Origin: a virus
Taxonomy: Duplodnaviria; Caudoviricetes
IMG/VR virus record: IMGVR_UViG_3300025375_000017
Coordinates: 1-27,228 of that record
DNA: 27,228 bases
Reading direction: 5' to 3' (one strand)
Positions 6,568-26,226 of the stretch are shown piece by piece (within the stretch, counting starts at the first letter, position 1; every line of letters starts with the position of its first letter). A program made the translations under genes and the position numbers. A model generated the notes under the pieces. It had not been told where the DNA came from. It ran no database searches and saw only the letters and a program-made list of their open reading frames with translations.

Positions 6568-6587
6568 ACATACTTTCTACAAAGTTA

Positions 6588-7028: not shown

Positions 7029-7049
7029 TCGGCAATCCCTTTCTGAATC

Positions 7050-7238: not shown

Positions 7239-7244
7239 ACTCTT

Positions 7245-7274
7245 ACTAATGCAATAAAGGCGAAAAATCCGCCC
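7245..7274 (-). promoter_or_regulatory. Phage late promoter, copy 2
   Basis: Minus strand GGGCGGATTTTTCGCCTTTATTGCATTAGT. Confidence 0.75.
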
Positions 7275-7279
7275 TTAAA

Positions 7280-10428: not shown

Positions 10429-10431
10429 AGG

Positions 10432-10893
10432 TTATTGTTTCTCTATTTGTTTCATCCAATTTGCTAACGCTTGTACTTCTAAAGCGGTTGCTCTTTGTTT
10501 CATTGTGTTGGCTTTAAAAGAAATCCAACAGACGTTTCCCGGAACATATCCGAGTTCAGGTTTGAATTTATCTAATGAAGGCGAGTTATCTGTGGCTTTG
10601 CCTTTTCGTTCACACCAAGATAGTTTAAGGCCCAAAACCGGGCAAATATCTTTGGCAATCTCCATTGCGTATTTTGAATCTATTTCAAATGGTATAGATT
10701 GCTTTTTAGCTTCTGATTTTCTTTGATTAATAATTCTACTAACATGCCCCAATTTTTCCTGCATTTGCGAGTCTTTTTTGGTATTTGTTTGAATATTTTT
10801 ACAAAGACGGCACCAAGAAGCCAATTTATCTTTTGTGTGTTTGTGTTTTCCAAAATTGTCGGAAAATATTTTGCATTTACTGCATTGCTTCAT
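10432..10893 (-). CDS. HNH-type homing endonuclease with N-terminal Zn-finger
   Basis: CSKC...WCRLC followed by CPVLG...SPSLDKFKPELGYVPGNVCWISFKANTMK. Confidence 0.8.
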   Translation of the reverse strand: MKQCSKCKIFSDNFGKHKHTKDKLASWCRLCKNIQTNTKKDSQMQEKLGHVSRIINQRKSEAKKQSIPFEIDSKYAMEIAKDICPVLGLKLSWCERKGKATDNSPSLDKFKPELGYVPGNVCWISFKANTMKQRATALEVQALANWMKQIEKQ

Positions 10894-10980
10894 TTTAACT
10901 CCCCTAAGTTGTGTAGTTGGAAACTAGGTTGGCTAGGGGGCCAAACAGGCGCTGCAGGCGCTTTTCGTGTTCCTATATAC

Positions 10981-11010
10981 ACTAATGCAAAATTATGGCC
11001 AAATCCGCCC
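10981..11010 (-). promoter_or_regulatory. Phage late promoter, copy 3
   Basis: Minus strand GGGCGGATTTGGCCATAATTTTGCATTAGT, directly after the terL stop. Confidence 0.75.
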
Positions 11011-12453
11011 TTATTGTGCATAAGGATTTGCTAAACGTTTGCTTGGTTCGGAATCGGCATAGTCGTAATCTCGAGCAGGTAACGGATCTAATCTAATCCA
11101 GCCCGAATCCCTTAATATTCTTAATGCTTGGGATAGGGAGTCCACATAGTCATCATGGCCCCCCATTTCGGGGAATGAACAGACTTGGCGCAAGAAACGC
11201 TTGGCCCATTCTGCATACTCCCCTTTTTGTTTTGTATCTTCTGGTATGTAAATCTTTCCTTTTGCAACTAAAGGGGCCACAATGTTAAGACGCTGTACCT
11301 TATCACTGCGGCCGGGATTATATGCTCGTACAGGAATTCCTGATTGCTGAAGTTCCTGAATCAAAGAAATACCTGCGCTTTTGTCCTCCATTAAAACTTG
11401 GTCTGCTTTACGGCCTTTACCGAATGTATTGTCTGCCCCGTATACAACTTCTTTAAAATCTTCAATTACTTTGCGGCGAAGTTCTGGGTAGGATAAATGC
11501 TGGTCCCAAGCATCCAATAGAATGGCACAAGTTCCCACGTCGGTGTTTTCAAAGATACCCCACACTGTGCAAGCTGTTGGGTCGTTGTGTGTTTTTTCTG
11601 AGGTAGCAGGGTCATAGGAAGCAATAACGTATTCTAGGTTTGGTGTTGGCTTGGAAGCCGGCCATTGCTTAAACATCTTGCGTTTGATGATACCAGATGA
11701 CTCTGGGTCCAGAATCTCACCGTAAATCTCTTGCCGACCAATGTCGGTTCCGTCGTAGGTTTCTAGCTGTTTGAAAAATGTCTCGGAGAGGTTCGCCCGA
11801 TTGTCATACGAGGATGCGTTTGCAACGTAGACGTCACCACCGACTTTACCTTCGTTGAGGTCAACAATGAGCTCTTTTGGCTTGGGGGTGGTGGTGATGA
11901 TTTGCTGGACTCTGGGAAGTCTTGGATCTCTAAGACGCAATGTGAACTGTACTCCGTCGTATGCTGCGTCAATATAATCGAAGGCACACAACTCGTCAAA
12001 CCAAGCTCCATGGTATTGTTTACCACGATACCGTTCTGGTTCTGAAGCTGGGATTCCTTGAATGAGGCTTCCGTTGATAAGGGTAATTTCAAAGAGGGAC
12101 TTGTTGTAATCTCGTATAAGTGACGCGGGTATGATATTGAGAAGACCGGAGTCTCCTTCAAAGCAAGTTGCACGGATATCATTAGAGGTGGGGGCGGTGA
12201 CAAGCCAGCGAGTGTTGTCGAAGATCCAAGCGCGAATACCAATCCAATGAGACGCAGTGTGCGTCTTGCCAGACCCTCGGCCCGCAAGCATAAGAAATGT
12301 GTCATACTCTCCATCCTCAGGTTCCTTTTGGTGTGGCAGTGCCTGTAGCTTCCATTTAATCTGCCAAACGGCGGCGTCAAGCTGTGCTTTAGGCCAGTGT
12401 TGCCTTTCAGTAATAAATTTGGTAAGGGTCTTTTCTTGTTGCGGGGTTAACAT
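11011..12453 (-). CDS. terL: Terminase large subunit
   Basis: Walker A AGRGSGKT, Walker B GAWFDE, coupling motif TTTP, and RNase H-like nuclease motifs YDPA and HDDYVDS. Confidence 0.95.
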   Translation of the reverse strand: MLTPQQEKTLTKFITERQHWPKAQLDAAVWQIKWKLQALPHQKEPEDGEYDTFLMLAGRGSGKTHTASHWIGIRAWIFDNTRWLVTAPTSNDIRATCFEGDSGLLNIIPASLIRDYNKSLFEITLINGSLIQGIPASEPERYRGKQYHGAWFDELCAFDYIDAAYDGVQFTLRLRDPRLPRVQQIITTTPKPKELIVDLNEGKVGGDVYVANASSYDNRANLSETFFKQLETYDGTDIGRQEIYGEILDPESSGIIKRKMFKQWPASKPTPNLEYVIASYDPATSEKTHNDPTACTVWGIFENTDVGTCAILLDAWDQHLSYPELRRKVIEDFKEVVYGADNTFGKGRKADQVLMEDKSAGISLIQELQQSGIPVRAYNPGRSDKVQRLNIVAPLVAKGKIYIPEDTKQKGEYAEWAKRFLRQVCSFPEMGGHDDYVDSLSQALRILRDSGWIRLDPLPARDYDYADSEPSKRLANPYAQ

Positions 12454-13445
12454 ACAGCTATGAATCCTTCTCCGACCAGGTAACTATTATCAGCTCCTTC
12501 GGTTTCAATGTGAACGCACAATTGCGGCGGCAACTTGGAAATTGCTTTGATGTACCTACGTCCTTGGTGTACTAAAGGCTTTGGGTGTGGTATTTGGTTA
12601 TTTACTAATTGTAACTTAGATCTGAAAATAAGTATATAGCTTTTACGCTGTTCATTTATTTCCAAAGTTGTTTTATGTCCTAATGATTCCACTAGCGCTT
12701 GTATCTGTTGGACAATTGGTAGATGTCCGTTAGTAAATCGGAATAGACCGGTTTTCTTGGAGTAGGATTTGGGTTTGGCGCACAAGATACCTTTGAGCAG
12801 TTCCAATCGTTGCTCTGCAGAAGCTAAGAGATAATTGTTTGGAATTCGGTACGGAAGGTCAAAGTTAAGGTGTGACTCAATGGTTGGGTGTACAGAAAAG
12901 TACTTTTCTCCATTTGAGTGTTTGCCCCGCTCTATTATGGAATACCCAGCGTCTTTAAAGGTTTCGGTAAGGAAGTCATGGTTGCCCTTAGAGAAGTGCA
13001 TCCTTTTATTGCGGGTTTCATGGGTAAAGAACCAATAGCCAAAGATGAAAGGTGGGACGGGTAGGGACTGGTGGGGAAACTGAAGTGGCTTGGTGGTGGG
13101 TATAGAAAACGCATGGCTCCCATTGTTTTGCATTAGGTTGTCTGCTGGTAAGTCCGAAACCTTTTTAAACTTTAACGGGCGCTTGAATTTAAACTTGCCT
13201 TTGTATTGGAGTAGGCGGTCTCTGTAAACTTTGTCCTCGATTTGAAATCCAAGGTGTTGGTCGCCCTCCACTGTGAGGTGGTCATTGAATGTGACACGGT
13301 AGCAGCTGTCTGACCGGTATTCTTGGACCAGGGTTACTTTTTGGAGCCTACCCTCTTTGTCAAATACGTAATCCCCTGCCCGTAGGTCATGGGCTGTCTT
13401 CCAATAATCAAGCGTTAGTATTTTTTGGTTTGCAAGGATTGCCAA
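12447..13445 (-). CDS. Free-standing intein-like protein (Hint + LAGLIDADG-type domains) with degenerate catalytic motifs and no exteins
   Basis: N-terminal AILANQKILTLDYWKTAHDLRAGDYVFDKEG..CYRVTFND (Hint-N), PNNYLLASAEQRLELLKGIL (LAGLIDADG region), C-terminal CVHIETEGADNSYLVGEGFIAVC* (Hint-C without His-Asn). Confidence 0.8.
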   Translation of the reverse strand: MAILANQKILTLDYWKTAHDLRAGDYVFDKEGRLQKVTLVQEYRSDSCYRVTFNDHLTVEGDQHLGFQIEDKVYRDRLLQYKGKFKFKRPLKFKKVSDLPADNLMQNNGSHAFSIPTTKPLQFPHQSLPVPPFIFGYWFFTHETRNKRMHFSKGNHDFLTETFKDAGYSIIERGKHSNGEKYFSVHPTIESHLNFDLPYRIPNNYLLASAEQRLELLKGILCAKPKSYSKKTGLFRFTNGHLPIVQQIQALVESLGHKTTLEINEQRKSYILIFRSKLQLVNNQIPHPKPLVHQGRRYIKAISKLPPQLCVHIETEGADNSYLVGEGFIAVC

Positions 13446-13710
13446 AGTTTTTCATTATCCAATAATCTAGCCAATGCCCTAACGGCATCCTAATACTGCT
13501 CTCCACGGATGGGGGTAGTTTTCGTATATCAAACCGTTCTGTGACTCTTAGCCTAAACTGAATGTAAGCTGAGGTTTCTTTTGGAAACACTTCGGCAGGT
13601 ACATCGGCAAGATCCATAAAGTCCTTGTTGGCTACCAACACTCGAAAGCCACAAAACTTTCTTTCTGCATTTTCCAATGCACCTTGTATTTGGTATACAT
13701 ACTTAGTCAT
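13408..13710 (-). CDS. Hypothetical protein, first gene of the packaging operon
   Basis: 100 aa; ATG 6 nt after late promoter copy 4. Confidence 0.7.
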   Translation of the reverse strand: MTKYVYQIQGALENAERKFCGFRVLVANKDFMDLADVPAEVFPKETSAYIQFRLRVTERFDIRKLPPSVESSIRMPLGHWLDYWIMKNFGNPCKPKNTNA

Positions 13711-13716
13711 ACATCA

Positions 13717-13746
13717 ACTAATGCAAAATTGCTTTTGTTTTCGCCC
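13717..13746 (-). promoter_or_regulatory. Phage late promoter, copy 4
   Basis: Minus strand GGGCGAAAACAAAAGCAATTTTGCATTAGT. Confidence 0.7.
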
Positions 13747-13767
13747 TAATCCAGGAAATAAACATCT

Positions 13768-13888
13768 CCGGGACAGGGAAGACATAGAAGACAGGGTATA
13801 TTTATCTATTTTATTAAAAAAAAAAAAAAAAAAAAAAAATCTAAGAAAGAGTGAACATACCCTGTCTTCTGTGTCCTCCCTGTCCCGG
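13768..13888. repeat. Origin-like element A: inverted arms of three 9-bp iterons around an AT-rich core with an A24 tract
   Basis: GACAGGGAA-GACATAGAA-GACAGGGTA ... TACCCTGTC-TTCTGTGTC-CTCCCTGTC. Confidence 0.7.
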
Positions 13889-13895
13889 GATGCTG

Positions 13896-13908
13896 TAAGT
13901 CATTGATT
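13896..13908 (-). promoter_or_regulatory. IHF-binding consensus site
   Basis: Minus strand AATCAATGACTTA matches WATCAANNNNTTR, adjacent to element A. Confidence 0.55.
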
Positions 13909-14044
13909 TATATAGAGCGTCCAGTTTTTGGCAAAAAATATAAAAACTCACGGTCTGTGGGGCCCCCGGACCGAGGCCATGGGGGTCTAAAATTTTGGGG
14001 TGTCGTGTTTAAACAACACCCCCTTACCGCTAAAAAGGAGGGGT

Positions 14045-14472
14045 ATTCCACATTGTGAAATGCTATCTCATAATGTGGAACGCACCGACTCTGTCCCTAT
14101 TGTTTATGTTGCACCGCACCAATGCACCAATGTGGGGATGTTAGTAAGTGCTTACAAACCTAAGCACCACTTTGGTGCGCTTATGTTGCGGTGCAATAGT
14201 TAAGCACCAGATTGGTGCACGATGTTGCGGTGCAACATGGCAGATTGGTGGCGTGGTGTTTAAACTATGCGGGCGCGAGTGGCGGGGTGGTGATGTGGTA
14301 TGAATACCACAGTAATTCAAGGAAACATACTACTAACATGACAATTCAATCCAAAGCGTTTTAAGCCCCTTTTTAGCCGTTTGCCTAAGAGATGGGGTAT
14401 AGGTATAGGAGGGGTGGCGATCTCGATTTTCGAGGGTAAACCCTTAGGGGTAAACCCTTAAGGGTATGTCCT
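14045..14472. promoter_or_regulatory. Non-coding cluster of operator-like palindromes (NtrC-, PhaR-, SlmA-like and others)
   Basis: GCACC-N5-GGTGC at 14164 and 14204; TGTTGC-N3-GCA at 14107, 14184 and 14223; GTAAGTGCTTAC at 14144; TGTGGTATGAATACCACA at 14294; AGGGTAAACCCT-type repeats at 14433, 14447 and 14461. Confidence 0.65.
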
Positions 14473-14556
14473 AACTAGCGGGGCGGTTTAAACGCTACTA
14501 ATTGACTACAATCAAAGGGCAGTAACCGATTACTAACCAATAAGGAATAGAACACC

Positions 14557-15198
14557 ATGCTACTACTACCCGCACCAATCGAAGCCACCACCGCCAATCG
14601 TGAATCATGGCTCAACCTGATAGCCGATAAACACATTCGCCCCCTGTTTGCTTCAAAGGGCTACACAATCCCCGCCAATGTTCGCCTGTCATGCTCTCTA
14701 GCTAGTGGCGGGATTCACACTAAGAAACACCAAAAGCGTTTTACACTTGGTGAGTGCTACCCCGCTTCAATGTCATCTGATAACACTATCCAAATTATGA
14801 TCGTGCCAAGCCTAGCTGATTCCGCTAGGGTTATTGATGTCTTAATCCATGAGTTATGCCATGCCACAGTAGGCAACGGAGAGGGGCACAATAAGGTTTT
14901 TGGGGCTTGTGCAAGGGCAGTAGGGTTAGAGGGCAAACTCACCAGCACCAAAGCTGGCGAATGGCTCAAAGCCCTTATCACCCAATGGATAGAATCCGAG
15001 GGTGATTATCCCCATGCCAAACTTACAACCCGCTACACCAAGCAAACAACCCGCTTGCACAAGTGCGATTGTGCTTGTGGCTACACCATGCGGATATCGT
15101 CTAAATGGCTTAAGATCGCAACCCCACGATGCCCGCTAGGGCATGGCGATATGGCGCACGATTTCAAGCCCGAATATGATTATGAGGGCGATGAGTAA
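14557..15198 (+). CDS. SprT-like zinc metalloprotease with C-terminal Zn ribbon
   Basis: VLIHELCH...GHNKVF motif and CDCACG...CPLGHG; TAAGGA RBS. Confidence 0.8.
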   Translation: MLLLPAPIEATTANRESWLNLIADKHIRPLFASKGYTIPANVRLSCSLASGGIHTKKHQKRFTLGECYPASMSSDNTIQIMIVPSLADSARVIDVLIHELCHATVGNGEGHNKVFGACARAVGLEGKLTSTKAGEWLKALITQWIESEGDYPHAKLTTRYTKQTTRLHKCDCACGYTMRISSKWLKIATPRCPLGHGDMAHDFKPEYDYEGDE

Positions 15199-15236
15199 AA
15201 CCAAAGGCGGGGCAAACCTCCGCCATGTTTAAACTG

Positions 15237-15262
15237 ATCGGGGCTTAGCCCCGATTTTTTTT
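15237..15262 (+). terminator. Rho-independent terminator
   Basis: ATCGGGGC-TTA-GCCCCGAT followed by a T run. Confidence 0.85.
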
Positions 15263-15546
15263 GCCCGCCTAATCTGTTTAAACAATGCCAACACCTAGCC
15301 CAAAAAATAGCCCCTATCCTAGCCAATCAATTTGGGGGCATTTTAAGCCCCTTTTTAGCCTACATCGTGGCGGGTGTGTGGGTTAGGGTTAGACCCCTGA
15401 CGATCTCGATTTTCAAGGGTAAACCCTTAGTATAAAAACCCGCTTCTTTATTACTTTTCTGTATTAGACAAACCCCAAACAATCGGGCATAGTTTCAATC
15501 GTGGCATGACCACTAATTGATTACTAACCTTTAAGGAAATAGAACG

Positions 15547-15798
15547 ATGCAAACCAAACAACAAGACCCATTCTTTAACGAGATATCAGACGATGATATC
15601 CAAAGGATTACAGAATCCGAAGCCCTTGACCTATACAACGAGATGCTAGACGATTGCTACCCATTAGCAGAAGTTTGCGGGTTTCAATACGAAGCTAGTA
15701 GAGTATTGAAAGAAGTCGATCCTATCGCCTATCGTGTCGGATTTTCCGACTACTGTTCTAGCCTAGAAGATGATGGCTACGAAATCGACTACAAATAA
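15547..15798 (+). CDS. Small highly acidic early protein
   Basis: 83 aa, about 21 D/E against 6 K/R; TAAGGA RBS. Confidence 0.8.
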   Translation: MQTKQQDPFFNEISDDDIQRITESEALDLYNEMLDDCYPLAEVCGFQYEASRVLKEVDPIAYRVGFSDYCSSLEDDGYEIDYK

Positions 15799-15816
15799 CA
15801 GACAGGGAGTTTAAAC

Positions 15817-16023
15817 ATGACAATGATTACCAACCCAACACAAATTGCTACCTTTAGATATTGCACCATGCTAAGGGGGCTAGGGCTTGAATTAAAGGGC
15901 TTAAGAATGTCCAAAGGCATGACTATGTATGCTCTCATCAAAAAAGAGTTAAACCTTAAAGGCACAAGGGAAAGCGTATATAACCAATTAGCCGATATGC
16001 TAGGAAAGCCCCGCATTGTTTAA
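15817..16023 (+). CDS. Hypothetical basic protein
   Basis: 68 aa; GGGAG-TTTAAAC-ATG start and GTT-TAA end. Confidence 0.75.
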   Translation: MTMITNPTQIATFRYCTMLRGLGLELKGLRMSKGMTMYALIKKELNLKGTRESVYNQLADMLGKPRIV

Positions 16024-16070
16024 ACACTATGACCCATTTTAAATTTATCACACAACCGAAAGGCAACACC

Positions 16071-16313
16071 ATGAACAAATTACAAGTTAAACCAATCGCA
16101 AGCAATATGACCCTGTTAGAAACACCGAAGCATATTGTTTTATTCTCATACGCAACCCCTGTTGCTAGTTTTGATAAAGCCACCTATTCATTCAACCGCA
16201 CCGCTAAAAAGTGGTCTATGACAACCTCTCGCCACATCAATAAATGGTTAGATGGTGCAAAGGCACACGAACACCCACAAGAATATTTTGACAACCTTTT
16301 AGGGAGTGTTTAA
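16071..16313 (+). CDS. Hypothetical protein
   Basis: Start moved to MNKLQV after GAAAGGCAACACC; ends GTT-TAA. Confidence 0.75.
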   Translation: MNKLQVKPIASNMTLLETPKHIVLFSYATPVASFDKATYSFNRTAKKWSMTTSRHINKWLDGAKAHEHPQEYFDNLLGSV

Positions 16314-16316
16314 ACA

Positions 16317-16388
16317 ATGCGACATCTTATAGGTTTAATTATAGCCCTTGCAGTTATCACAATTATTTTATGGGGAACAACATTATGA
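16317..16388 (+). CDS. 23-aa single-pass membrane peptide
   Basis: MRHLIGLIIALAVITIILWGTTL; GGGAG RBS + GTTTAAAC-AATG; ATGA overlap with the next gene. Confidence 0.55.
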   Translation: MRHLIGLIIALAVITIILWGTTL

Positions 16389-16552
16389 TTAACGAATATT
16401 TTAAGCAAGGTGATCGGGCTATATGGTGCGGGTTTGATGAGGTCGAGATAGTCGATATATCGGGCGAGTGGGCTACCATTCGTTTCCCTGATACCCATAG
16501 CACCACGATCACCAACACCAAACATTTAGAGGAGTGTTTAAACGATGTCTAA
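16385..16552 (+). CDS. Hypothetical protein (small SH3-like beta barrel pattern)
   Basis: MINEYFKQGDRAIW...; translationally coupled start. Confidence 0.65.
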   Translation: MINEYFKQGDRAIWCGFDEVEIVDISGEWATIRFPDTHSTTITNTKHLEECLNDV

Positions 16553-16646
16553 AGATGACCTATATTGCACCCTCTTATTATTAGGGTTATTACTGATATT
16601 TATATTAGCCCCTGATCTATACAATCCCGCTTATGTTCAATCTTAA
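16545..16646 (+). CDS. 33-aa membrane peptide
   Basis: MSKDDLYCTLLLLGLLLIFILAPDLYNPAYVQS; GAGGAG RBS + GTTTAAAC-GATG. Confidence 0.55.
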   Translation: MSKDDLYCTLLLLGLLLIFILAPDLYNPAYVQS

Positions 16647-16839
16647 AGAGGGCGATTGGGTGCAGTATAGGGACAAGTTTGCTAGGGTGCATGGTGCAAC
16701 CAAAGCGGGCAGACACCTTATAGAAACCGCACCTAACGAGGATAATTTTGTTTATAGGCATTGGGTCAAGCCTTTAAGTATCACACCATTAGACCCCGCA
16801 GTTAGTAGCATTTTAGAGAGTATTTACGAAGTAGTTTAA
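16633..16839 (+). CDS. Hypothetical protein (LKEGDWV, SH3-like)
   Basis: 68 aa; ends GTT-TAA. Confidence 0.65.
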   Translation: MFNLKEGDWVQYRDKFARVHGATKAGRHLIETAPNEDNFVYRHWVKPLSITPLDPAVSSILESIYEVV

Positions 16840-16863
16840 ACACAACCAACGAAAGGCAACACC

Positions 16864-17943
16864 ATGTCAGATTTATATAAGTCGCTATCACTTAACGACA
16901 CCGCCAATTTGATTCTAGCAGTAGGCGATTCAACCACAGTCCTAGCACAGGGCGAAATGGGGATTGGTAAGTCCTCTATTCTGTCCATCTTGAAATCTAA
17001 ACTAGCAGACACACACCATTTTTGTTATGGTGATATGACAACCAAAGATGTAGGCGATTTTCTAGTCCCTAAGATACGCAGTTTAAACGGCACAGAAGTT
17101 TGCAGTTTTATTCCTAACGAGGAATTTGGTTTTCACTTTGATAAGCCCATTGTTTTAATGCTTGATGAGATCGGCAAGGCAAGTAAGGCAGTAATGAACG
17201 CTTGCTTAAGATTGATGTTAGAACGAAAATTAGGCACATTCGAATTACCCGAAGGCAGTATTGTATTCGCTACAACCAATTTAGCCAACGAAGCTATTGG
17301 GGATAACCTACCACCCCATGCCCGCAATCGTATCTCTGTTGTGAAGGTGCGTAAGCCCTCATCAGATGAGTGGATTGAGTGGGCATTGGACAACAACATC
17401 GCCCCCGAAGTATTGATGACAGTCAAACAGTTTCCGCAGATGTTGGCATCATTCGAGGATTTTGACAAAGCCAATGATAACGAGTATATCTACGACCCAC
17501 GCACACCCCGCCCCGCATTTTGCACCCCACGCAGTTTAAACAAGGCATCAGACATCATTAAAAAGTCCAAGCATTTAGGCATTGACATCATGGCACACGC
17601 ACTAAAGGGAACGATTGGAAACAGAGCCACATATGATATGCTCTCCATCATTCAATTAACAGACGAATTGCCAACATGGGAAGCCATCATTAAAGAGCCA
17701 AGCAAAACGAAAGTGCCTAATAGCCCAAGTGCCGTATGTATGCTAGTTTATTCCGCTATTCAGCAAGTAGAGAAGGAAAGCATCAATAAGTGGGTAGAGT
17801 ATATGGGCAGACTATCCAAAGAAGCACAAGGGCTATTCGCAACATCAGTAATGCGAACATCTAAGAAAACAACAGTTGGCACATCACAGGGGTTTATTAA
17901 ATGGGCTACCGCAAACAATTATCTATTCGCACAGACAGTTTAA
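16864..17943 (+). CDS. MoxR-like AAA+ ATPase
   Basis: Walker A GEMGIGKS, Walker B LMLDE, sensor FATTN, TPRS motif. Confidence 0.88.
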   Translation: MSDLYKSLSLNDTANLILAVGDSTTVLAQGEMGIGKSSILSILKSKLADTHHFCYGDMTTKDVGDFLVPKIRSLNGTEVCSFIPNEEFGFHFDKPIVLMLDEIGKASKAVMNACLRLMLERKLGTFELPEGSIVFATTNLANEAIGDNLPPHARNRISVVKVRKPSSDEWIEWALDNNIAPEVLMTVKQFPQMLASFEDFDKANDNEYIYDPRTPRPAFCTPRSLNKASDIIKKSKHLGIDIMAHALKGTIGNRATYDMLSIIQLTDELPTWEAIIKEPSKTKVPNSPSAVCMLVYSAIQQVEKESINKWVEYMGRLSKEAQGLFATSVMRTSKKTTVGTSQGFIKWATANNYLFAQTV

Positions 17944-17948
17944 ACGCT

Positions 17949-18155
17949 ATGCACAATATCCCTAAACGCAGAGCCAAGAAGATCGAAGATGAGATTCTGA
18001 GGTCTATGCAATACCGCATGAGCCAAGCCACTACACCCGCAGAAAAGCGAGCAGTTGTGGCAGAGGTGAACCCATTGTTCTATGTATTCGGTGAACAACG
18101 CAAGGTGTTTAAACCATACCTAACATACAAGGAAAATTATGAACGAAGCTATTAG
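17949..18155 (+). CDS. Hypothetical protein
   Basis: Start moved to MHNIPK after the ATPase stop; no clear RBS. Confidence 0.55.
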   Translation: MHNIPKRRAKKIEDEILRSMQYRMSQATTPAEKRAVVAEVNPLFYVFGEQRKVFKPYLTYKENYERSY

Positions 18156-18285
18156 AATTATTGATATGTTGGTGGGTTTGATCTACGATTTATACCCTGA
18201 CGAGGAATACGAGGAATTGTATGGGATTAAAGATAAGATTGAACAAGCCCAACAATTTGTAGATAAACAGGCACAGGGAGTTTAA
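18139..18285 (+). CDS. 48-aa acidic hypothetical protein
   Basis: MNEAIRIIDMLVGLIYDLYPDEEYEELYGIKDKIEQAQQFVDKQAQGV; AAGGA RBS; ends GTT-TAA. Below the ORF-track cutoff. Confidence 0.65.
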   Translation: MNEAIRIIDMLVGLIYDLYPDEEYEELYGIKDKIEQAQQFVDKQAQGV

Positions 18286-18287
18286 AC

Positions 18288-18512
18288 ATGGCACTAACCG
18301 CAGAACAACGCATTGAATACTCATCACTTGAAATTATGACCGAAGTGGCATGGCAAGTCGGTGATAATTTAAAAGATGCACCTAGAGCAGAGAGTAGGTG
18401 GTATGTTGTGGATTTAGCACAAAGAATCATTGATGCTAATATTATTACAGTAGATAGCGAAGATATAGACGAAACAATCCACACTTGGCTAATTCAAAAT
18501 GGAGAGGTTTAA
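18288..18512 (+). CDS. Acidic hypothetical protein sharing its first 10 aa with the next gene
   Basis: 74 aa starting MALTAEQRIE. Confidence 0.75.
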   Translation: MALTAEQRIEYSSLEIMTEVAWQVGDNLKDAPRAESRWYVVDLAQRIIDANIITVDSEDIDETIHTWLIQNGEV

Positions 18513-18514
18513 AC

Positions 18515-19666
18515 ATGGCACTAACCGCAGAACAACGCATTGAGAGATGCCACATTGAGTTAATGAAGCACCCGCATTTTGTGGCTTATTCGGGTATCTT
18601 GATGATTGGTGATTGTAAGGTAGAGGACAACCTACCAACCGCTTGCACCAATGGTCGTGATGTTCGTTATGGTCGCAAGTTTGTAGAGAGTTTAAACGAT
18701 ACCGATTTGCGAGGGGTTATCTTGCATGAAGCCAAGCACAAAATGTATCGCCATCTACTAACATGGAAGCATTTAAACAAGCAAGACCCACAGAGGGCAA
18801 ACATGGCTTGTGATTATGTCATCAATCTTGAATTGGTAGATGAGTGCAAGCGATCAAGCGGGTTTGTATCACTACCCAAAGGTGGATTGGTAAGCGAAGA
18901 TTTTAGAGGGCTTAATTCCGCAGAGGTGTTCAACCTATTACCGCCACAACCTAAAGGCAATGGTGGTGATGGTGGGTTTGACGAACACGACTGGGAGGGG
19001 GCAGATGGTTTAAACGATGCCGAGAAAACCGAGTTAGCCAAAGAGATCGACCAAGCCATTCGTCAAGGTGCAATTTTAGCGGGTAAGGTGGGCGGGAATG
19101 TTGATCGCAGTTTCACCGACCTTATGAGTGCCAAAGTAGATTGGAAAGAAGCCCTTAGAGAGTTTGTGTCTAGCGTATCACAGGGTAAAGACGATTCGAC
19201 ATGGCGAAAACCTAACCGCAGATGGCTTCAGCATGACATCTATATGCCATCAACCATTAGCGAATCAATGGGGCGAGTGGTGGTGGCTATTGATACATCG
19301 GGTAGTATTTATGGTGAAGTCCTTAACCGATTCATTAGCGAGGTGGCAAGTGTCATGCAGAATATGAACCCCGAACAGGTAGATTTACTGTATTGGGATT
19401 GTGAAGTAGCGGGGCATGAGGTATATGGTTTAAACGATGCCGATAGAATGACATCATCAACCAAGCCTAAAGGTGGTGGTGGCACAAGTCCGAAGTGCAT
19501 CACCCAATATATGCGTAAGCATAAGATAGACCCTGTATGTGCCATCATTCTCACCGATGGGTATGTGGGGAACGATTGGGGTGGACAATGGAATTGCCCT
19601 ACCTTGTGGACAATCACAAGCGACATCAAATCACCAATCGGTCAAACTATCAAAATCGAAGTTTAA
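18515..19666 (+). CDS. DUF2201-like metallopeptidase + VWA domain protein (partner of the AAA ATPase)
   Basis: TACTNG, HEAKH (HExxH), MIDAS DTSGS, GGGGT and LTDG motifs; start at MALTAEQ after a GGAG RBS. Confidence 0.88.
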   Translation: MALTAEQRIERCHIELMKHPHFVAYSGILMIGDCKVEDNLPTACTNGRDVRYGRKFVESLNDTDLRGVILHEAKHKMYRHLLTWKHLNKQDPQRANMACDYVINLELVDECKRSSGFVSLPKGGLVSEDFRGLNSAEVFNLLPPQPKGNGGDGGFDEHDWEGADGLNDAEKTELAKEIDQAIRQGAILAGKVGGNVDRSFTDLMSAKVDWKEALREFVSSVSQGKDDSTWRKPNRRWLQHDIYMPSTISESMGRVVVAIDTSGSIYGEVLNRFISEVASVMQNMNPEQVDLLYWDCEVAGHEVYGLNDADRMTSSTKPKGGGGTSPKCITQYMRKHKIDPVCAIILTDGYVGNDWGGQWNCPTLWTITSDIKSPIGQTIKIEV

Positions 19667-19669
19667 ACA

Positions 19670-20632
19670 ATGTGGAGGAAAATTGAAATGAGTTATTACA
19701 GAGCATCTTGCAGTCCATACGATGTGCAGTCAGCACAAGGTGGGGCATTTACATTTGCCACAGTTAAAGAACGCTACGAAAACACTAAGCCAATTCAAGG
19801 CAAGCGAAAGGCAGATAACATTAGACCAATCAATCGTAGAGATAGGTCGCAAGAACGCATTGTTAAGGTAAGCGATACCGAGTATTACATTACCTTTGAT
19901 GGCTATAAGTTTCGACCAACTCATAACAGGGCGATTACATGGAGTTTAAACAATGGCATGGAATTTATGACCATTCACACCCCACGCAAAACATGGTCAA
20001 GCACAGACCCAACCGAGTTATATCCACGCTTTTTGTCTAGTGCATCGGTATTTTGGTTTTATGATTTCAATATGCCAAGTGGGTTTAACATGGTTAATTA
20101 TTATGTTAATAAGTATGTTCGCTATAAAGACAAACATTACACCATTGAACAGGGTGATATTATGTTCCAACGCAAACAAGGTGAATCTGATTGGCAACCA
20201 CTATTAGTCCACAGGCAGTTTAAACACCATATAGACAAGGAAAAGACTAAGGAATTAAAAGAGAGTATTAAGCCGTTCCTAGAATACTATGACACCATGT
20301 CGGGGATTGTTGATACAAATTATGGGTGGGGTAATGGCATACATCGGGCTATTATTGGTGATGATAATTGGCGGGGTGTTTCCCAAGATGAGGTATTGGC
20401 ATTTATGAAGCCTACCGATGGCAACATTCCTGATGGGTGGTTAAGCATGGTAGAACGCTACAAGTCCAAGATTACATATCGCACTTATGGCGATGCAGAA
20501 GCAATCGAACGCAGAGGTGAATTAGAAAAGGTAATTACTAAAGACCTATTCGAGTTAGCAAAACCATGTAAAGCAATCGAAGTCCCACTAGGTCAAGTTT
20601 GTATTGACCGCTACAAAAAATGGTATAGATAA
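19670..20632 (+). CDS. Hypothetical protein
   Basis: 320-aa ORF; alternative start at 19688 behind GGAGG. Confidence 0.8.
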   Translation: MWRKIEMSYYRASCSPYDVQSAQGGAFTFATVKERYENTKPIQGKRKADNIRPINRRDRSQERIVKVSDTEYYITFDGYKFRPTHNRAITWSLNNGMEFMTIHTPRKTWSSTDPTELYPRFLSSASVFWFYDFNMPSGFNMVNYYVNKYVRYKDKHYTIEQGDIMFQRKQGESDWQPLLVHRQFKHHIDKEKTKELKESIKPFLEYYDTMSGIVDTNYGWGNGIHRAIIGDDNWRGVSQDEVLAFMKPTDGNIPDGWLSMVERYKSKITYRTYGDAEAIERRGELEKVITKDLFELAKPCKAIEVPLGQVCIDRYKKWYR

Positions 20633-20642
20633 GGAAAAGAAA

Positions 20643-21476
20643 ATGCCCAAATTCAATGTTAAAGCAAACAAATTTAGTGATGTTGATACAGTAGATTGTT
20701 TGATTGATCTAGCCAATCAAATATCTAAGGTAGTCCCCGACATATCGTTTAAACATGGTGGCATGGAAAAGTGGGGAGTTGATTTAGAAAAGCACCCCGA
20801 TGGTGTTTGCCAATCTCTCAAAGTATTCCACGCAGATGATTTAAACAACCATATAGGTGTTATTGAGGTGTCAAATTTTTATGGGGAAACAGATAAGCCC
20901 AAGTATGGTATCTCCTCTATCAATATCAATGATGGTAGGCAGACCTATAACGAGAATGGTCAGCATAAATACTCTATCAATATCAAGAACATTGTTCGTG
21001 TTGCCAAAAAGGTATTAAAGCCCTTTACATTCAATCAGATTGCAGACAGGCATAAGCGGGAGTTTGAGAATAATATAGACAGTTTACGCAACAATATGAA
21101 TTGGAAATTACGGCAAAATGTATGCGATGGCTACCAACATCTTATTGATGACATCGAGAATCTGTATCACTTAGACTACAAACCCAAGAACGATAAGTTT
21201 AAACAGATGATAGAATATGTTATGAATAACAAGGCAAACATCGACAAGTATAGGAATTACAAACCACCCCACTATTTTGTATTGGTTAAGAACAACCTAG
21301 TTCAATATAGATTGATGGGGGATAAACTAGCTGAGCCATTTACTATCCGAGCAAAAGACGAATTGCCTGATGAGATCAAGGGTAAGTTGTTTGTCCTAGA
21401 TATTACAGAGGGCAAGGATTTTGTGGAGGACATCGGTTTAAAACAAAACGATGGTGCATATTGGATAATAGCCTAA
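20643..21476 (+). CDS. Hypothetical protein
   Basis: Start moved to MPKFNV after TAAGGA. Confidence 0.8.
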   Translation: MPKFNVKANKFSDVDTVDCLIDLANQISKVVPDISFKHGGMEKWGVDLEKHPDGVCQSLKVFHADDLNNHIGVIEVSNFYGETDKPKYGISSININDGRQTYNENGQHKYSINIKNIVRVAKKVLKPFTFNQIADRHKREFENNIDSLRNNMNWKLRQNVCDGYQHLIDDIENLYHLDYKPKNDKFKQMIEYVMNNKANIDKYRNYKPPHYFVLVKNNLVQYRLMGDKLAEPFTIRAKDELPDEIKGKLFVLDITEGKDFVEDIGLKQNDGAYWIIA

Positions 21477-21676
21477 AAGCGGGGGATTGGTTTATGCTAG
21501 ATGATTGGGGCAGTCTAGCCCGATTAGATAGCATAAACTACTCCGACCCCACTACCGCATACATACAAATATTTGATGAGGGGTGTTATACCTATGTATT
21601 TCAAGATATTAGATTGAAAGACCATAATATAACCAAGATAACCAAAGAAGTAGCCGACATAATGCGAGGTGTTTAA
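21461..21676 (+). CDS. Hypothetical protein ending ITKEVADIMRGV
   Basis: 71 aa with TTG start. Confidence 0.65.
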   Translation: MDNSLKAGDWFMLDDWGSLARLDSINYSDPTTAYIQIFDEGCYTYVFQDIRLKDHNITKITKEVADIMRGV

Positions 21677-21679
21677 ACA

Positions 21680-21874
21680 ATGACAACATATTTAATGCAC
21701 AAAACAAAAAGTTGGGTGGGGTTTGCTGATCTACCAAAATGGGTAAATTTTGACGAACAACCACCTAGAAGTTTTAATGTATATTGGTATACCATAAATT
21801 GTGCTATGCAAGGTTCAACAACCCATGTTGTCCCGATAACCAAAGAAGTTGCTGATATAATAAGGGGTGTTTAA
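21680..21874 (+). CDS. Hypothetical protein ending ITKEVADIIRGV
   Basis: 64 aa; GAGGT RBS + GTTTAAAC-AATG. Confidence 0.7.
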   Translation: MTTYLMHKTKSWVGFADLPKWVNFDEQPPRSFNVYWYTINCAMQGSTTHVVPITKEVADIIRGV

Positions 21875-21877
21875 ACA

Positions 21878-22231
21878 ATGTATAAATCAAGCATAGTGAT
21901 AGAACGAATGGATTACCTAATGATGGAACAGGATAGTGGAGAGCCTGTGTTTCCCCGATCTGAATTTAGGGCGATGATAGGCGAGGTATTATGCACACCA
22001 ATCGAACAGATATGGCGGGTTAGATTCTATGATGATGACACAGTAGCCCTATATAGTTTTGCCATGCCACAGACCGAAAAAAATTTACCCCCTACACATC
22101 GTTTAAACAGGGAGTCAATTCCACAATGGATTAGTGAACGAATCTGTGTCTTGCAGATATGCGAAGATGGGGACATCGTAGAGGGTGTAGGGCAAAAAGT
22201 ATCAGACAGGGTGTTCTATGTCATCGAATAA
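21878..22231 (+). CDS. Hypothetical protein
   Basis: 117 aa. Its C-terminus (IPQWISERICVLQI..GDIVEGVGQK) resembles that of 20643..21476 (LPDEIKGKLFVLDI..KDFVEDIGLK), so the two are possible paralogues. Confidence 0.75.
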   Translation: MYKSSIVIERMDYLMMEQDSGEPVFPRSEFRAMIGEVLCTPIEQIWRVRFYDDDTVALYSFAMPQTEKNLPPTHRLNRESIPQWISERICVLQICEDGDIVEGVGQKVSDRVFYVIE

Positions 22232-22346
22232 GTATGATGATTTCGGTGAGCTAGTGTGGGCTTCACCCCAGAAACCAAAACGCAATCTGGCAAAGAAATG
22301 CAATTTTAAAGACGCGTTTAAACTACTAGGAAGGGCTTTATTTTGA
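22218..22346 (+). CDS. 42-aa hypothetical protein
   Basis: MSSNKYDDFGELVWASPQKPKR...LLGRALF; overlaps both neighbours. Confidence 0.45.
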   Translation: MSSNKYDDFGELVWASPQKPKRNLAKKCNFKDAFKLLGRALF

Positions 22347-22489
22347 TTGAGATTATCACAAGTTTTGTATATTTACCTGTCATAGCCATAATGTATGTAG
22401 TTAAGGGGTTATGGTGGGTGGTAAGCAATTCATGGTGGGCTTTATTACTTTCCTATCTGTATGTAGCATATAGGCATTACCAAAAGTAA
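22343..22489 (+). CDS. 48-aa hydrophobic membrane protein
   Basis: TTG start overlapping the previous TGA; IEIITSFVYLPVIAIMYVVKGLWWVVSNSWWALLLLSYLYVAYRHYQK. Confidence 0.45.
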   Translation: MIEIITSFVYLPVIAIMYVVKGLWWVVSNSWWALLLSYLYVAYRHYQK

Positions 22490-22492
22490 TAA

Positions 22493-22552
22493 ACGCACCA
22501 TTTTGGTGCGTGTGTGGTATAATAGGGGCTTATCCACAAAATAAGCCCCTAT
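22493..22552 (+). promoter_or_regulatory. Promoter of the sigma gene: NtrC-like palindrome, extended -10, DnaA box within a 12-bp hairpin
   Basis: ACGCACCATTTTGGTGCGT (22493-22511), TGGTATAAT (22515-22523), TTATCCACA (22530-22538), stem ATAGGGGCTTAT/ATAAGCCCCTAT. Confidence 0.65.
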
Positions 22553-23120
22553 GATTGATAACGACATTCTAAGCGACTACCTACAATCTCTGTATGGTAT
22601 AGAACCCCTCTCAATCGAGGAGGAACACCGACTAGCCAAGCTAGTGCAACAAGGTGATGAGAAAGCCCTAGACACCCTAGTAACCCACAACCTACGATTC
22701 GTGGTCTATATCGTCAGGAAGATGACCGCATGGAATCATGGCAAAGTGCCTGTTGAGGATATGGTGGCGATGGGTAACGAAGCCCTACTTGTATCGGCTA
22801 GGCGATGGAAACCAACCAATAATTCTAGGTTAGCTACCTATGCCAAGACATTCATTGAAAAGGGGGTGCGTAGGGATTTAGATAACACCGCAAACATCAT
22901 CAGGCTACCTATAAACATCATGGAAGCGATTAAGCGACTAAGCTATAACGACAGGGCATTAACCCAAATACTAGGTCGTAAGCCCAAAACCAAAGAATTA
23001 GCCAAGATAATGCAGGTATCCGAAGCAAGGATAGCTGAATTGCAAGGATTCATGGCAAGAGAACCTATTTCCATAGACCATTTAAACACCGAGAGAGTAG
23101 CAGATGAGCAAGATGATTGA
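22551..23120 (+). CDS. RNA polymerase sigma70-family factor (regions 1.2-3, no region 4)
   Basis: YLQSL..PLSIEEEHRLA..GDEKALDTLVTHNLRFVV..RLATYA..IIRLP..LGRKPKTKELA; ends after PISID. Confidence 0.88.
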   Translation: MIDNDILSDYLQSLYGIEPLSIEEEHRLAKLVQQGDEKALDTLVTHNLRFVVYIVRKMTAWNHGKVPVEDMVAMGNEALLVSARRWKPTNNSRLATYAKTFIEKGVRRDLDNTANIIRLPINIMEAIKRLSYNDRALTQILGRKPKTKELAKIMQVSEARIAELQGFMAREPISIDHLNTERVADEQDD

Positions 23121-23421
23121 GTTGAACCCCGAACAAACAAGAGCATACAACCGCTACATTATGGCAAGGGATAAGGTAAACAAGAAAGCTAAAAATTGGG
23201 TTAGGGCATCAGATATCTCCCATACAGTAGATATAGTAGGTTTAAACCACCCCCTGTATGTAGTAAATGATGTGTATGTGGAGTATGTGGAAGCATTTAA
23301 ACAATGGCTTAGTGTAGAACCCCGCTTTAGGAACGATGAACGCATGAGGTCGTCTAGGGGGGATTATGGAGTGCCAGCAGATAATTGGGAAGAAAAGCCC
23401 TCTAAAGTTAAGGAATTATGA
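23104..23421 (+). CDS. Hypothetical protein overlapping the sigma gene end
   Basis: 105-aa ORF; start may be 23113. Confidence 0.7.
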   Translation: MSKMIELNPEQTRAYNRYIMARDKVNKKAKNWVRASDISHTVDIVGLNHPLYVVNDVYVEYVEAFKQWLSVEPRFRNDERMRSSRGDYGVPADNWEEKPSKVKEL

Positions 23422-23895: not shown

Positions 23896-26226
23896 GTGCA
23901 AAAACCTGCAGCACTACCAGTTCAGTTTTCCAACATCCCCATGGAGCTAAAGAGAATCCCCCGCTGGGTTCTATGGCGGCACACCGAAGTGGGTGAAGAA
24001 GGAAACAAACGCTGGTCTAAATTACCAATTCAAGCATCGGGGCAATCTGCCTCATCAACCAACCCAACAACATGGGCAGACTTTCTCACAGTACAAGCTG
24101 CCTATGAGTCCAACCCAGACCGCTTTTCCGGCGTCGGTTTTGTCTTCTCCGAAGACGATAACCTCATTGGGGTGGACTTGGATGACTGCTATGATGTCAC
24201 ATTGCAGAGTTTCACAAATGCTGCAATGCAGCATATTGCTACATCAATTAACGGCTACATGGAGGTTAGTCCATCTGGCACGGGTGTAAAGATCTTTACT
24301 AGGGGCTCTATAAAGACAGCTCACGTTGACCATTCGATTGGGTTTGAGTGTTACCCGCATGGCCGCTACTTTACAGTAACAGGTCAGCTCATCTCAGGCA
24401 CCATCCCAAGTGAGGAGCAAGACTTATCCACCATCATTCCTGACAGAACAGTTCACATTACTGGGGATGACTTTGCTGACTACAAACCCCCTGTGCCAGA
24501 CTACGACCTAGCTAGAGTGGAGACAGAGATCTTAGCGCACCTACCATCTACCAACTGCGGGTACACAGACTGGATGGCAGTCGGTTACGCATTGCACCAC
24601 CAATTCAGAGGTGACCCTGAGGCTTGCGAGTTATGGGATCGCTGGTCTTACGCAGACGGAGCATCACCAGAGTATCAGGCAATCGGTGAGATGTCCTGCC
24701 ATTACAAATGGGGCACATTTAAACGGGAGTCAGGCTCGACATCCACACTACGCTCGCTGATCTTCAAAGTTAACATTCAAACTAGACAAGAAGCACTTAA
24801 TCGTGGAGAAATTATTGTTGATGCAGGAACAATGAACCATGCTCGCACATTCTTAGACAATCTGTTTTCATCTGAAGAAGGTTACACCTTAGTGCATTAT
24901 GCGCAGGACTTTTTTATCTATGTAGGAACCCACTATGAAATCATTGAAGAAGCAACAATTAGATCCAAGCTCTATAGCTTTTTGGATAAATGTAAAAAGG
25001 CGGGAAAGAAGGGTGCGCTCGAAAGTTTTAACCCTAGTCCAGCATCCGTCTCTGCGGCGCTCGATGCCGTTAAGTCAATCTGTCACTTGCCAAATCATCC
25101 GAACACCAAGCCTCCAATTTGGCTTGAGCAATATGCTAGAGATCAACCAGACTCTTGCGATCTTATTTCCCTTAAAAACGGAATTTTCCACCTTAAAGAC
25201 TACGTAACTATCCCTCACTCACTAGGCTTCTTTACACAGAACTCATTACCCTTTGTGTATGACCCACAAGCACAGTGCCCCACATGGATGAAGTTTTTAG
25301 ATTCTATATGGGGTGATGACCCACAATCTATCGAAGCGCTACAAGAGATGTTTGGTTATATACTATCTGGTGAGACTAAACAACAAAAGTTTTTTAACAT
25401 CATTGGGCCTCGCCGTTCAGGTAAGGGAACCATTAACAAGATCTTAGTGTCGCTGTTAGGGCAGCACAATACGGTCGCACCACAACTGGAGGAACTTTGT
25501 GATACATTTGGTTTGCAGCCTTGGCTGGGTAAGCTCCTCGCTTCTTTTACTGACGCAAGAGCACCTGAGAGAAACAGATCTGCTGTTGTATCTCAGCTTC
25601 TGCGTATTGTGGGTGGTGATACCGTTACTGTCAACCGGAAGAACAAAGAGGCTTGGTCTGGTTATTTGCCTACTCGCATTGTTGTTTACTCTAACGAGGT
25701 TCTTCAACTAACTGAGAACTCCAACGCATTGACCGGACGTATGGTAGTGTTCAAAATGTCACGTTCATTTTATGCTAAAGAAGATACAGATCTATCTGTT
25801 AAGCTAGATAAGGAATTGGCTGGCATATTTAACTGGTCAATGGCGGGGTTAAAGCGTAGACTAGCCCGTGGTGGGCACTTTATCCAGCCAGACTCAGGCA
25901 AAGATTTGCTTGAATTGATGGAAGACATCGGTAACCCAATACGCTCATTTGTATCTGAAGCATTAGAATTTGATTTAGCTGGTAGCGTATCTAAGGATGA
26001 TGTATTTACATGCTTCAAGCATTGGTCATTACGTAAGTCTTTGCCGCCAGGTAACGAACTATCGTTTAAACGTCGTTTTTTAGCTGCAACTCAAGAATAT
26101 CGTGTGGAAGCTAGCCAAGAGAAGTCAAATGGTGTTAGAATGCACATATACCGTGGAGTTAAACTTAACGAAAGAGCACAAAAGTATGTTGATAGTGTAG
26201 AATCCTTTAATGAAGAAGTCTTTTAA
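23896..26226 (+). CDS. Primase-polymerase / SF3 helicase (PrimPol + PriCT-2 + D5/P4-type helicase)
   Basis: GVDLDDC, EVSPSGTG and RYFTVTG (PrimPol); DWMAVGYALH..WDRWS (PriCT-2); LKNGIF (D5_N); Walker A GPRRSGKGT. Confidence 0.9.
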   Translation: MQKPAALPVQFSNIPMELKRIPRWVLWRHTEVGEEGNKRWSKLPIQASGQSASSTNPTTWADFLTVQAAYESNPDRFSGVGFVFSEDDNLIGVDLDDCYDVTLQSFTNAAMQHIATSINGYMEVSPSGTGVKIFTRGSIKTAHVDHSIGFECYPHGRYFTVTGQLISGTIPSEEQDLSTIIPDRTVHITGDDFADYKPPVPDYDLARVETEILAHLPSTNCGYTDWMAVGYALHHQFRGDPEACELWDRWSYADGASPEYQAIGEMSCHYKWGTFKRESGSTSTLRSLIFKVNIQTRQEALNRGEIIVDAGTMNHARTFLDNLFSSEEGYTLVHYAQDFFIYVGTHYEIIEEATIRSKLYSFLDKCKKAGKKGALESFNPSPASVSAALDAVKSICHLPNHPNTKPPIWLEQYARDQPDSCDLISLKNGIFHLKDYVTIPHSLGFFTQNSLPFVYDPQAQCPTWMKFLDSIWGDDPQSIEALQEMFGYILSGETKQQKFFNIIGPRRSGKGTINKILVSLLGQHNTVAPQLEELCDTFGLQPWLGKLLASFTDARAPERNRSAVVSQLLRIVGGDTVTVNRKNKEAWSGYLPTRIVVYSNEVLQLTENSNALTGRMVVFKMSRSFYAKEDTDLSVKLDKELAGIFNWSMAGLKRRLARGGHFIQPDSGKDLLELMEDIGNPIRSFVSEALEFDLAGSVSKDDVFTCFKHWSLRKSLPPGNELSFKRRFLAATQEYRVEASQEKSNGVRMHIYRGVKLNERAQKYVDSVESFNEEVF

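Follow-up and report, generated by a model that had tools for sequence, protein, structure and literature searches.

The viral contig IMGVR_UViG_3300025375_000017 (Duplodnaviria; Caudoviricetes), analysed over its complete length of 27,228 nucleotides and referred to here as the window, carries a leftward block of structural genes and a rightward block of early genes (Table 1), and the early genes are threaded with exact copies of the 8-bp palindrome GTTTAAAC. The first of them encodes an SprT-like protein with a protease-like N-terminal domain and a small C-terminal domain, and it is this C-terminal domain that, judging from sequence comparisons, very probably binds GTTTAAAC.

Exact counting gives 30 copies of GTTTAAAC in the window, 29 of them at 14007-23247 and one at 26064, with zero in 1-14006, in agreement with a preliminary description that had reported 29 copies in 9.2 kb, one at 26064 and none in the first 14 kb, and whose quoted gaps prove correct on recount. 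The strong enrichment that it had estimated against a base-composition expectation of ~0.3 is borne out by an order-2 Markov model of the 10 kb around the ATPase gene (0.33 expected, 29 observed) and by whole-window dinucleotide shuffles (n = 100; mean 0.77, maximum 3, against 30 observed). Nine copies form GTT-TAA (Val-stop) codon pairs, 14 lie within early genes in the x-L-N and F-K frames, one lies within the primase gene and six are non-coding; stop, in-gene and non-coding copies had been recognized before, and several copies stand directly ahead of a start codon. Under a codon-aware null already envisaged in the preliminary description, in which proteins are fixed and synonymous codons redrawn (2000 runs), a mean of 1.06 and a maximum of 6 in-gene copies arise against 14 observed, so codon usage does not account for the array. 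The codon opportunities for GTTTAAAC are filled at 14 of 17 positions in early genes and at 0 of 5 in late genes.

The copies are also spaced more evenly than random placement would produce, with a coefficient of variation of the gaps of 0.55 against 0.95 in the window (P = 0.001), and the same holds in 9 of 11 arrays (P ≤ 0.03); no helical phasing of the gaps was found in the array. Specificity for the exact word is sharp, since one-mismatch variants are enriched at most ~2-fold, and the flanking bases add nothing beyond a mild A/G bias after the word. The variant sites listed in the preliminary description are present, but ATTTAAAC also occurs at 9309, 13187 and 24717 and is enriched only about 2-fold when pooled over 10 arrays (13 against 6.2 expected), so that it does not clearly belong to the signal. 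Confinement of the word to the early region, likewise proposed earlier, holds in the window save for the copy at 26064 but not beyond it: a 91%-complete relative (G001) has 10 more copies across its remaining ~50 kb, and in cultured phages the word is spread over the whole genome. Taken as a whole, the array is a real, strongly selected DNA signal that is evenly tiled. An exact 37-nt duplication (18280-18316 and 18507-18543) begins at a copy of the motif, and the adjacent genes share an N-terminus.

Relatives of the early genes document how the copies are gained and kept. Among 65 ATPase relatives, copy numbers are 7-40 in all 18 that reach at least 81% identity and 0-2 in the other 47. In codon alignments, copies fall where the encoded residues differ from those of outgroups (T-I-D to S-L-N, G-I-D to G-L-N and E-V-V-H to E-F-K-H), and ten outgroup ATPase and VWA orthologues contain no in-gene copies. 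Two ATPase sites 45 nt apart are mutually exclusive, one being present in 14 rows and the other in 4, never both and never neither, in all 18 rows (the window included, and several of them near-copies). These compensating sites and amino-acid changes imply that the feature being kept is a site in the neighbourhood and not a peptide, which, together with the codon null, upholds the earlier proposal that the DNA word itself, and not a peptide or junction signal, is under selection. Whether relatives share the same 8-mer has a divided answer: relatives with the SprT-like gene are dense in it, other terminase relatives with at least 5 kb of early-side DNA have 0-1 copies, and in-gene sites shift position. 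Several motif-free relatives (L035, L036, L040, L044 and L049-L055; L032, L033, L042, L043, L048 and L061; L104; L148; L096) have repeated words of their own close to the early region, of the TCCCAC(T/G)GTGGGA and CTTCATAT types and as CTGGTGAG, GGCAAGGT and GGGTAAAC.

The gene with which the word travels is the SprT-like gene. The terminase-sigma-primase backbone of the window is common to many motif-free phages with other early cassettes, and 24 of 80 terminase loci include at least 5 kb of early-side DNA; in these 24, copy number is 12-31 in all 10 relatives that possess the SprT-like gene and 0-1 in all 14 that do not. Complete or near-complete genomes follow suit, in that no SprT-like match was obtained in G004, G007, G008 and G020 (0, 2 and 2 copies in the first three), while G006, a complete genome from the clade of the window, has the gene and 25 copies. 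On the TerL tree (30 rows, mostly weakly supported) the trait is scattered and requires six changes, which implies that the cassette moves as a module. A blind scan of viral contigs for a three-copy pattern recovered 105 loci, 80 of them with flanks, which fall into 12 gene-content groups at 32-50% G+C content, and the SprT-like family is the sole family that spans most of these groups (10 of 12), a domain profile finding it in 63 of the 80 dense loci.

Two other candidates were rejected: the phage sigma factor as reader, because motif-free relatives have a 53-82% identical homologue, and the ATPase-VWA cassette as cause, because all 10 loci at 67-75% ATPase identity have 0 copies (these have another backbone, and the SprT-like gene was not found in them). 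The SprT-like allele of the window (14557-15198) is just 51% identical to that of L002/L326, a relative whose ATPase is 98% identical; on sequence identity, the gene appears to have been swapped between close relatives with the word unchanged.

The SprT-like protein scores 28.8 bits against PF10263 (cut-off 25.6), and its HELCH motif and H111 are invariant in 11 aligned sequences. Its N-terminal domain was modelled with a predicted local distance difference test score (pLDDT) of 86.5 and resembles abylysin (Z 8.0, root-mean-square deviation, rmsd, 2.9 over 90), SPRTN (6mdx; Z 7.6, rmsd 4.0 over 100) and Wss1 (Z 7.0), all at middling scores. The C-terminal ~45 residues, with invariant Arg and Cys, are modelled as a zinc-ribbon-type hairpin and helix (pLDDT 90.5), to which zinc-ribbon-type folds are the best, though weak, matches (Z up to 3.1); Foldseek returned no match at E ≤ 0.001 for this domain, and PDB sequence search, Pfam, NCBIfam and the protein atlas assigned it to no informative family. 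The HExxH motif is kept in nine of the ten gene-bearing groups, but in group 0, the largest, which comprises phages with a WhiB gene, it is found in 0 of 41 loci, and several stand-alone C-terminal domains of ~55 aa occur there in loci with 15-42 copies. Since group 0 lacks HExxH and domain-only genes still accompany dense arrays, the word follows the C-terminal domain and not the protease. The protease did not consistently diverge faster than the C-terminal domain.

The association was also followed in the reverse direction, from the gene to the word. Cultured records with the SprT-like gene number 164-165, and in 10 cultured phages, picked to span hosts and not at random, GTTTAAAC or GTTTACAC is enriched in 8. 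Observed and expected counts of GTTTAAAC are 6 and 0.66 in HeidiAbel, 4 and 0.14 in Mano, 7 and 0.01 in Pan1 and 8 and <0.01 in R26L, and mainly GTTTACAC or GTGTAAAC is used in DrManhattan (26), SuMoo (16), Marky (34 in all) and 4A (14 in all); enrichment extends to genomes of 63-70% G+C, where 0.01-0.2 copies are expected. The recorded hosts of the word-using phages are Proteobacteria, Actinobacteria and one cyanobacterium. The two remaining phages, CN1 (1 copy) and Epa5 (0 copies), of ~40 kb each, both have a missing or degenerate C-terminal zinc-ribbon motif. In a larger set, drawn from the cultured phages, the best 80 of 269 viral hits and the best 80 of 189 genomic hits (152 of 170 loci kept after 18 short or cut loci were dropped), the word is enriched in 88 of 91 loci whose protein has a Q[STGA]TR linker (1083 copies against 51 expected) and in 2 of 61 loci without it (22 against 27 expected). 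The difference persists between sequence clusters, at 29 of 30 against 2 of 9 for 60% clusters (Fisher P = 1.8e-5) and 10 of 10 against 2 of 7 for 50% clusters. Eight Jilinvirus-like genomes (six picked from 41 capsid hits, plus HeidiAbel and Mano) agree, five with the gene having 4-8 copies of GTTTAAAC, one of them just before the gene, and three without it having 2, 2 and 0. Many Polynucleobacter chromosomes (L405-L463) hold a homologue in which HExxH is kept and a proline-rich linker replaces KQTTR, with no nearby motif enrichment; it is possibly a domesticated, site-less version.

Several observations count against so simple a pairing of word and domain. No such gene was found in 17 of the 80 dense loci, nearly all of them cut inside the array, and of five records that were checked whole, 4 gave no match, the records being 10-88% complete; G015, an 88%-complete record with 18 copies, starts in the array. 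The linker signature was picked post hoc, after the data had been seen, and 52 of the 61 linker-negative loci form a single chromosomal Polynucleobacter-type cluster. Two loci (G013 and G014) are dense despite other linkers, PPpW-3 and FoX3 hold 2 copies without the gene, and the Liebe allele carries three further changes.

The position of the word relative to the gene bears on its function. Of 90 signature-bearing loci, 53 have a copy no more than 400 bp upstream of the gene, as do 2 of 61 others, and in 16 of 35 inspected cases this upstream copy overlaps the spacer, -10 box or start of a strict sigma70-type promoter. Promoter overlap is raised genome-wide in DrManhattan (5 of 26 copies, 0.3 expected) and SuMoo (7 of 16, 0.4 expected). 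Pooled over 11 genomes, density is 0.14-0.22 copies per kb at distances beyond 2 kb on the upstream side, rises to 1.3 in the final 2 kb before the gene and to 3.4 just downstream, and has fallen to ~1 by 8-10 kb; in G006 and G010 the SprT-like gene heads an operon that diverges from the terminase.

These data can be assembled into a mechanism in which the C-terminal zinc-ribbon domain of the SprT-like protein would read GTTTAAAC, probably as a dimer because the word is palindromic. The site at the gene's own promoter would be an operator for autoregulation, and the further copies would act as roadblocks in the manner of stoperators, throttling transcription through the 9-kb early operon; upstream copies placed on promoter elements have the geometry of an operator, which favours autoregulation plus roadblocks. 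That bound sites repress or damp the phage's own early transcription is an evenly balanced proposition. The N-terminal zincin would play an accessory part, perhaps as a self-cleaving switch or in the removal of stalled complexes, given that in one large lineage the active site or the whole domain is gone and the arrays are still dense. The preliminary description had read the locus as a binding-site array, and a protein-binding array is still the best reading, but co-occurrence points to the phage SprT-like protein as reader and not to a host nucleoid protein or one ejected from the virion, as was then suggested.

Repression meets difficulties of its own. Copies in dense arrays are not enriched at promoters (4 against 2.8 expected in the window, 5 against 7.5 in G001 and 1 against 6.9 in G011); no strict sigma70-type promoter was found around the upstream copy of the window, nor over that copy in any of 7 members of its clade. 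Spacing is even genome-wide in DrManhattan, Marky, Pan1 and R26L, and in cultured phages the even spacing continues through essential late genes, which suits coverage better than an operator. The non-palindromic variant has no common orientation, with strand ratios of 19:7 in DrManhattan, 3:13 in SuMoo and 11:21 in a third actinophage, the genes of all three being mostly co-directional. No integrase or repressor family was found among the 58 open reading frames (ORFs) of G006 or the 44 of G010 (at least 90 aa; ORFs cut at 20-kb boundaries are incomplete), which makes lysogenic immunity an unlikely reason for the sites there; some carriers (AZ and Jilinvirus) do have integrases.

Even coverage lends itself to a second reading, possible but doubtful, in which the sites would serve as landing pads for a Spartan/Wss1-like protease, or just a bound protein, tethered along phage DNA to clear or block host proteins that are bound to DNA or track along it, most densely on the DNA exposed first. 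The even spacing of 9 of 11 arrays and of the four cultured genomes, the compensating turnover of sites within genes, the position of most sites away from promoters, the middling resemblance of the N-terminal domain to SPRTN and Wss1 and the retention of HExxH outside group 0 all suit such a role. It fits poorly with the 41 HExxH-less loci and domain-only genes of group 0, with the operator-like position of copies at the gene's own promoter in phages that are unrelated, and with HeidiAbel, a carrier of the gene and of 6 sites that the available text of PMC11990801 reports as very sensitive to restriction-modification systems. A broader version of the same idea, put forward equally tentatively, is a mobile two-part module. 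One part would be a zinc-ribbon reader of ~50 aa, in most cases joined to a Spartan-like protease, and the other an 8-bp self-mark that selection writes into any phage genome acquiring the gene, at even intervals and through coding sequence as well. Phages of at least three host phyla would thereby have a sequence-addressed protease in cis on their own DNA that removes or blocks DNA-bound host proteins.

That a conserved host protein (a nucleoid protein, translocase or entry factor) reads the word, the SprT-like gene co-occurring because its product acts on that protein, appears unlikely: use of the same word in phages of Proteobacteria, Actinobacteria and a cyanobacterium would suit it, and binding by the phage protein is itself a prediction, but the word tracks residues of a phage domain, close relatives without the gene are also without the word, and in three Polynucleobacter chromosomes of 1.6-2.0 Mb the word occurs 12-32 times, less often than the control word. 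Similarly improbable is a nicking, modification or HIP1-like recombination site, for which the sharp specificity, the many copies at gene junctions, the 37-nt duplication that starts at a copy (18280/18507) and the concentration of nick sites in the early half of the phage tf genome (available text of PMC3517423) might be cited. Nick motifs of the tf type are, however, asymmetric and single-stranded whereas GTTTAAAC is palindromic, no methyltransferase or nuclease family spanning the motif-dense groups was found within the loci compared, and 14 of the 29 copies lie in genes at an amino-acid cost. A by-product of codon use or of stop, ribosome-binding-site and start junction habits, to which the nine GTT-TAA stops and the copies ahead of start codons might point, is refuted by the codon null (maximum 6 in 2000 runs against 14; 0 of 5 late opportunities used), by the absence of in-gene copies from the 10 outgroup orthologues and by enrichment at 63-70% G+C.

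All 24 listed runs with the stretch are freshwater, lake or freshwater-sediment metagenomes, with no RNA run among them. A contig whose SprT-like gene is 98% identical (L384) was binned in an uncultured betaproteobacterial metagenome-assembled genome, a weak hint of a betaproteobacterial host for the window phage. From gene layout only, the array would lie on the first-entering DNA. Contig depth (Logan) in run X2 is similar on either side (13.4-20.6), as in three other runs, with the right end of the array uncovered. Since such depth tracks copy number poorly and the source sample may account for three of the four runs, it says nothing either way about a long terminal repeat across the array.

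Two near-identical long inverted repeats 9.9 kb apart flank the array, and long inverted repeats with other, internally repeated arms are present in many motif-positive relatives; many terminase contigs stop ~1.35-1.5 kb upstream of terL, close to the left repeat. The repeats may mark genome ends or may be iteron-type origins used by the PriCT-2/D5 primase. Immediately upstream of terL, a 332-aa ORF (12447-13445, minus strand) matches terminase PHROGs, is 48-49% conserved in relatives and looks, by sequence, like a free-standing intein-type protein. The early leader has a 33-nt repeat ending in GGGTAAACCCTTAG at 14415-14447 and 15398-15430 and small GCACCA...TGGTGC inverted repeats at 14161-14218, all candidate promoter or regulatory elements. 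The open-ended gene at 2-688 (minus strand) encodes SGISGY-type hexapeptide repeats, is the source of the other top 8-mers of the window and probably specifies a tail-fibre-like product. In G001, 33612-35017 (L067) holds two ORFs that are not present in the other genomes compared and that may be ketoacyl-synthase-like and acyl-carrier-like, a sequence impression only.

Table 1. Features of the window and their coordinates.
Feature	Position	Strand	Remarks
Window	27-kb viral contig		complete contig covered
Terminase, portal, GroES, capsid (structural genes)	from ~13.7 kb	leftward	
Small-gene operon, SprT-like gene, MoxR ATPase, DUF2201/VWA gene, truncated sigma factor, primase	from 14.5 kb	rightward	
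Left long inverted repeat, A/T-rich loop	13768..13888	.	bounds array; z -11.2
Array of 29 exact GTTTAAAC palindromes	14007..23247	.	mean gap 330 bp; spans early operon
Copy ending 63 bp ahead of SprT-like start codon	14486..14493	.	candidate autoregulatory operator
SprT-like gene, 213 aa, phrog_6361, PF10263	14557..15198	+	first early gene; likely reader of GTTTAAAC; array begins here
HELCH...H zincin metal-binding motif (H98, E99, H102, H111)	14848..14889	+	N-terminal protease-like domain
C-terminal KQTTR/Cys zinc-ribbon-type domain (hairpin plus helix)	15034..15141	+	predicted DNA-reading part
MoxR-like AAA ATPase	16864..17943	+	two in-gene copies via amino-acid replacement, plus GTT-TAA stop copy
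DUF2201 metallopeptidase/VWA gene	18515..19666	+	three in-gene copies, plus GTT-TAA stop copy
Truncated sigma70-like factor (regions 1.2-3)	22551..23120	+	
Right long inverted repeat, A/T-rich loop	23662..23777	.	bounds array ahead of primase; arm 92% identical to left
Outlying copy	26064..26071	.	in primase gene; kept in 10/13 aligned primase genes (window counted)

The predicted pairing would supply a candidate binding site and function for a common, uncharacterised phage family (164 cultured records), and the array shows phage proteins altering their sequence to carry a DNA signal. It is testable in culture through the E. coli phage HeidiAbel with its 6 sites, a truncated natural allele in Arthrobacter AZ phages and the natural ~55-aa domain. 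Should the protease act at the sites, phages would have a new way to manage proteins on their own DNA; a repressor would instead be a very small sequence-specific regulator found across host phyla, and could be the regulator that AZ-type phages have so far not been assigned.

Among known systems, HIP1 of cyanobacteria and DNA uptake sequences are also highly iterated short words that enter genes in all frames, and they are chromosome-wide features of hosts. Unlike them, GTTTAAAC lies in phage DNA, follows a phage gene and is under-represented in the bacterial chromosomes tested, where three Polynucleobacter chromosomes (a freshwater betaproteobacterial background, not an established host of the window phage) contain it 32, 12 and 12 times and the reversed word 50, 31 and 53 times, and one Pseudarthrobacter genome contains it 2 times and the reversed word 15 times (GTTTAAAC only). 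With the Polynucleobacter background standing in for the host, the shortfall counts against a HIP1- or uptake-like host signal, HIP1 being a comparison raised in the preliminary description. SPRTN and Wss1 are known to be directed by structure rather than by sequence, and here, by contrast, the C-terminal domain tracks an exact word and the protease can be lost. The window protein shares 35-44% identity with the best 60 of the cultured homologues listed, AZ-type ones among them, and resembles SPRTN, Wss1 and the phage SprT-like proteases of Cluster AZ in having a zincin HExxH followed by a small predicted DNA-binding domain (bioRxiv 2025.05.26.655371). The available text of that preprint describes the protein and predicts a DNA-binding C-terminus, gives no cognate site and contains no match to GTTTA, GTGTA or "palindrom". 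A Microbacterium survey gives other repeats, its available text having no match to SprT, TAAAC or TTTAC (PMC7302621), and SprT-like genes are mentioned with no site in the available portions of PMC7824862 and PMC11373665. No description of the word-protein pair was found in open-licence PMC and bioRxiv, subscription papers and supplements being outside that scope.

The nick motifs of tf/LUZ24-like podoviruses are similar in being short exact motifs that are repeated and concentrated in the early half of the genome (8-14 copies, 11 of 14 in the early half of tf), but they are asymmetric and single-stranded whereas GTTTAAAC is palindromic, and the available tf text links no SprT-like gene to them (PMC3517423); the window word is not a tf nick motif. 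The nearest parallel in layout is with the Cluster A mycobacteriophages (L5, and Bxb1 with its immunity repressor), which, according to the available text of PMC6550527, have 20-30 operator or stoperator sites, most of them not at promoters; the sites are 13 bp long, oriented with transcription, diverge with the repressor and serve lysogenic immunity. The window is alike in having 30 sites, a minority of them at promoters, and one candidate phage reader. It differs in that its site is an 8-bp palindrome (or a one-base variant) without common orientation that is nearly fixed across host phyla, enters genes by amino-acid change and pairs with a zincin plus zinc-ribbon protein, in phages some of which have no integrase that was found. 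With orientation and immunity context both different, the window system is not a member of the stoperator family, and it stands beside that family as an evenly tiled array with a candidate reader of its own.

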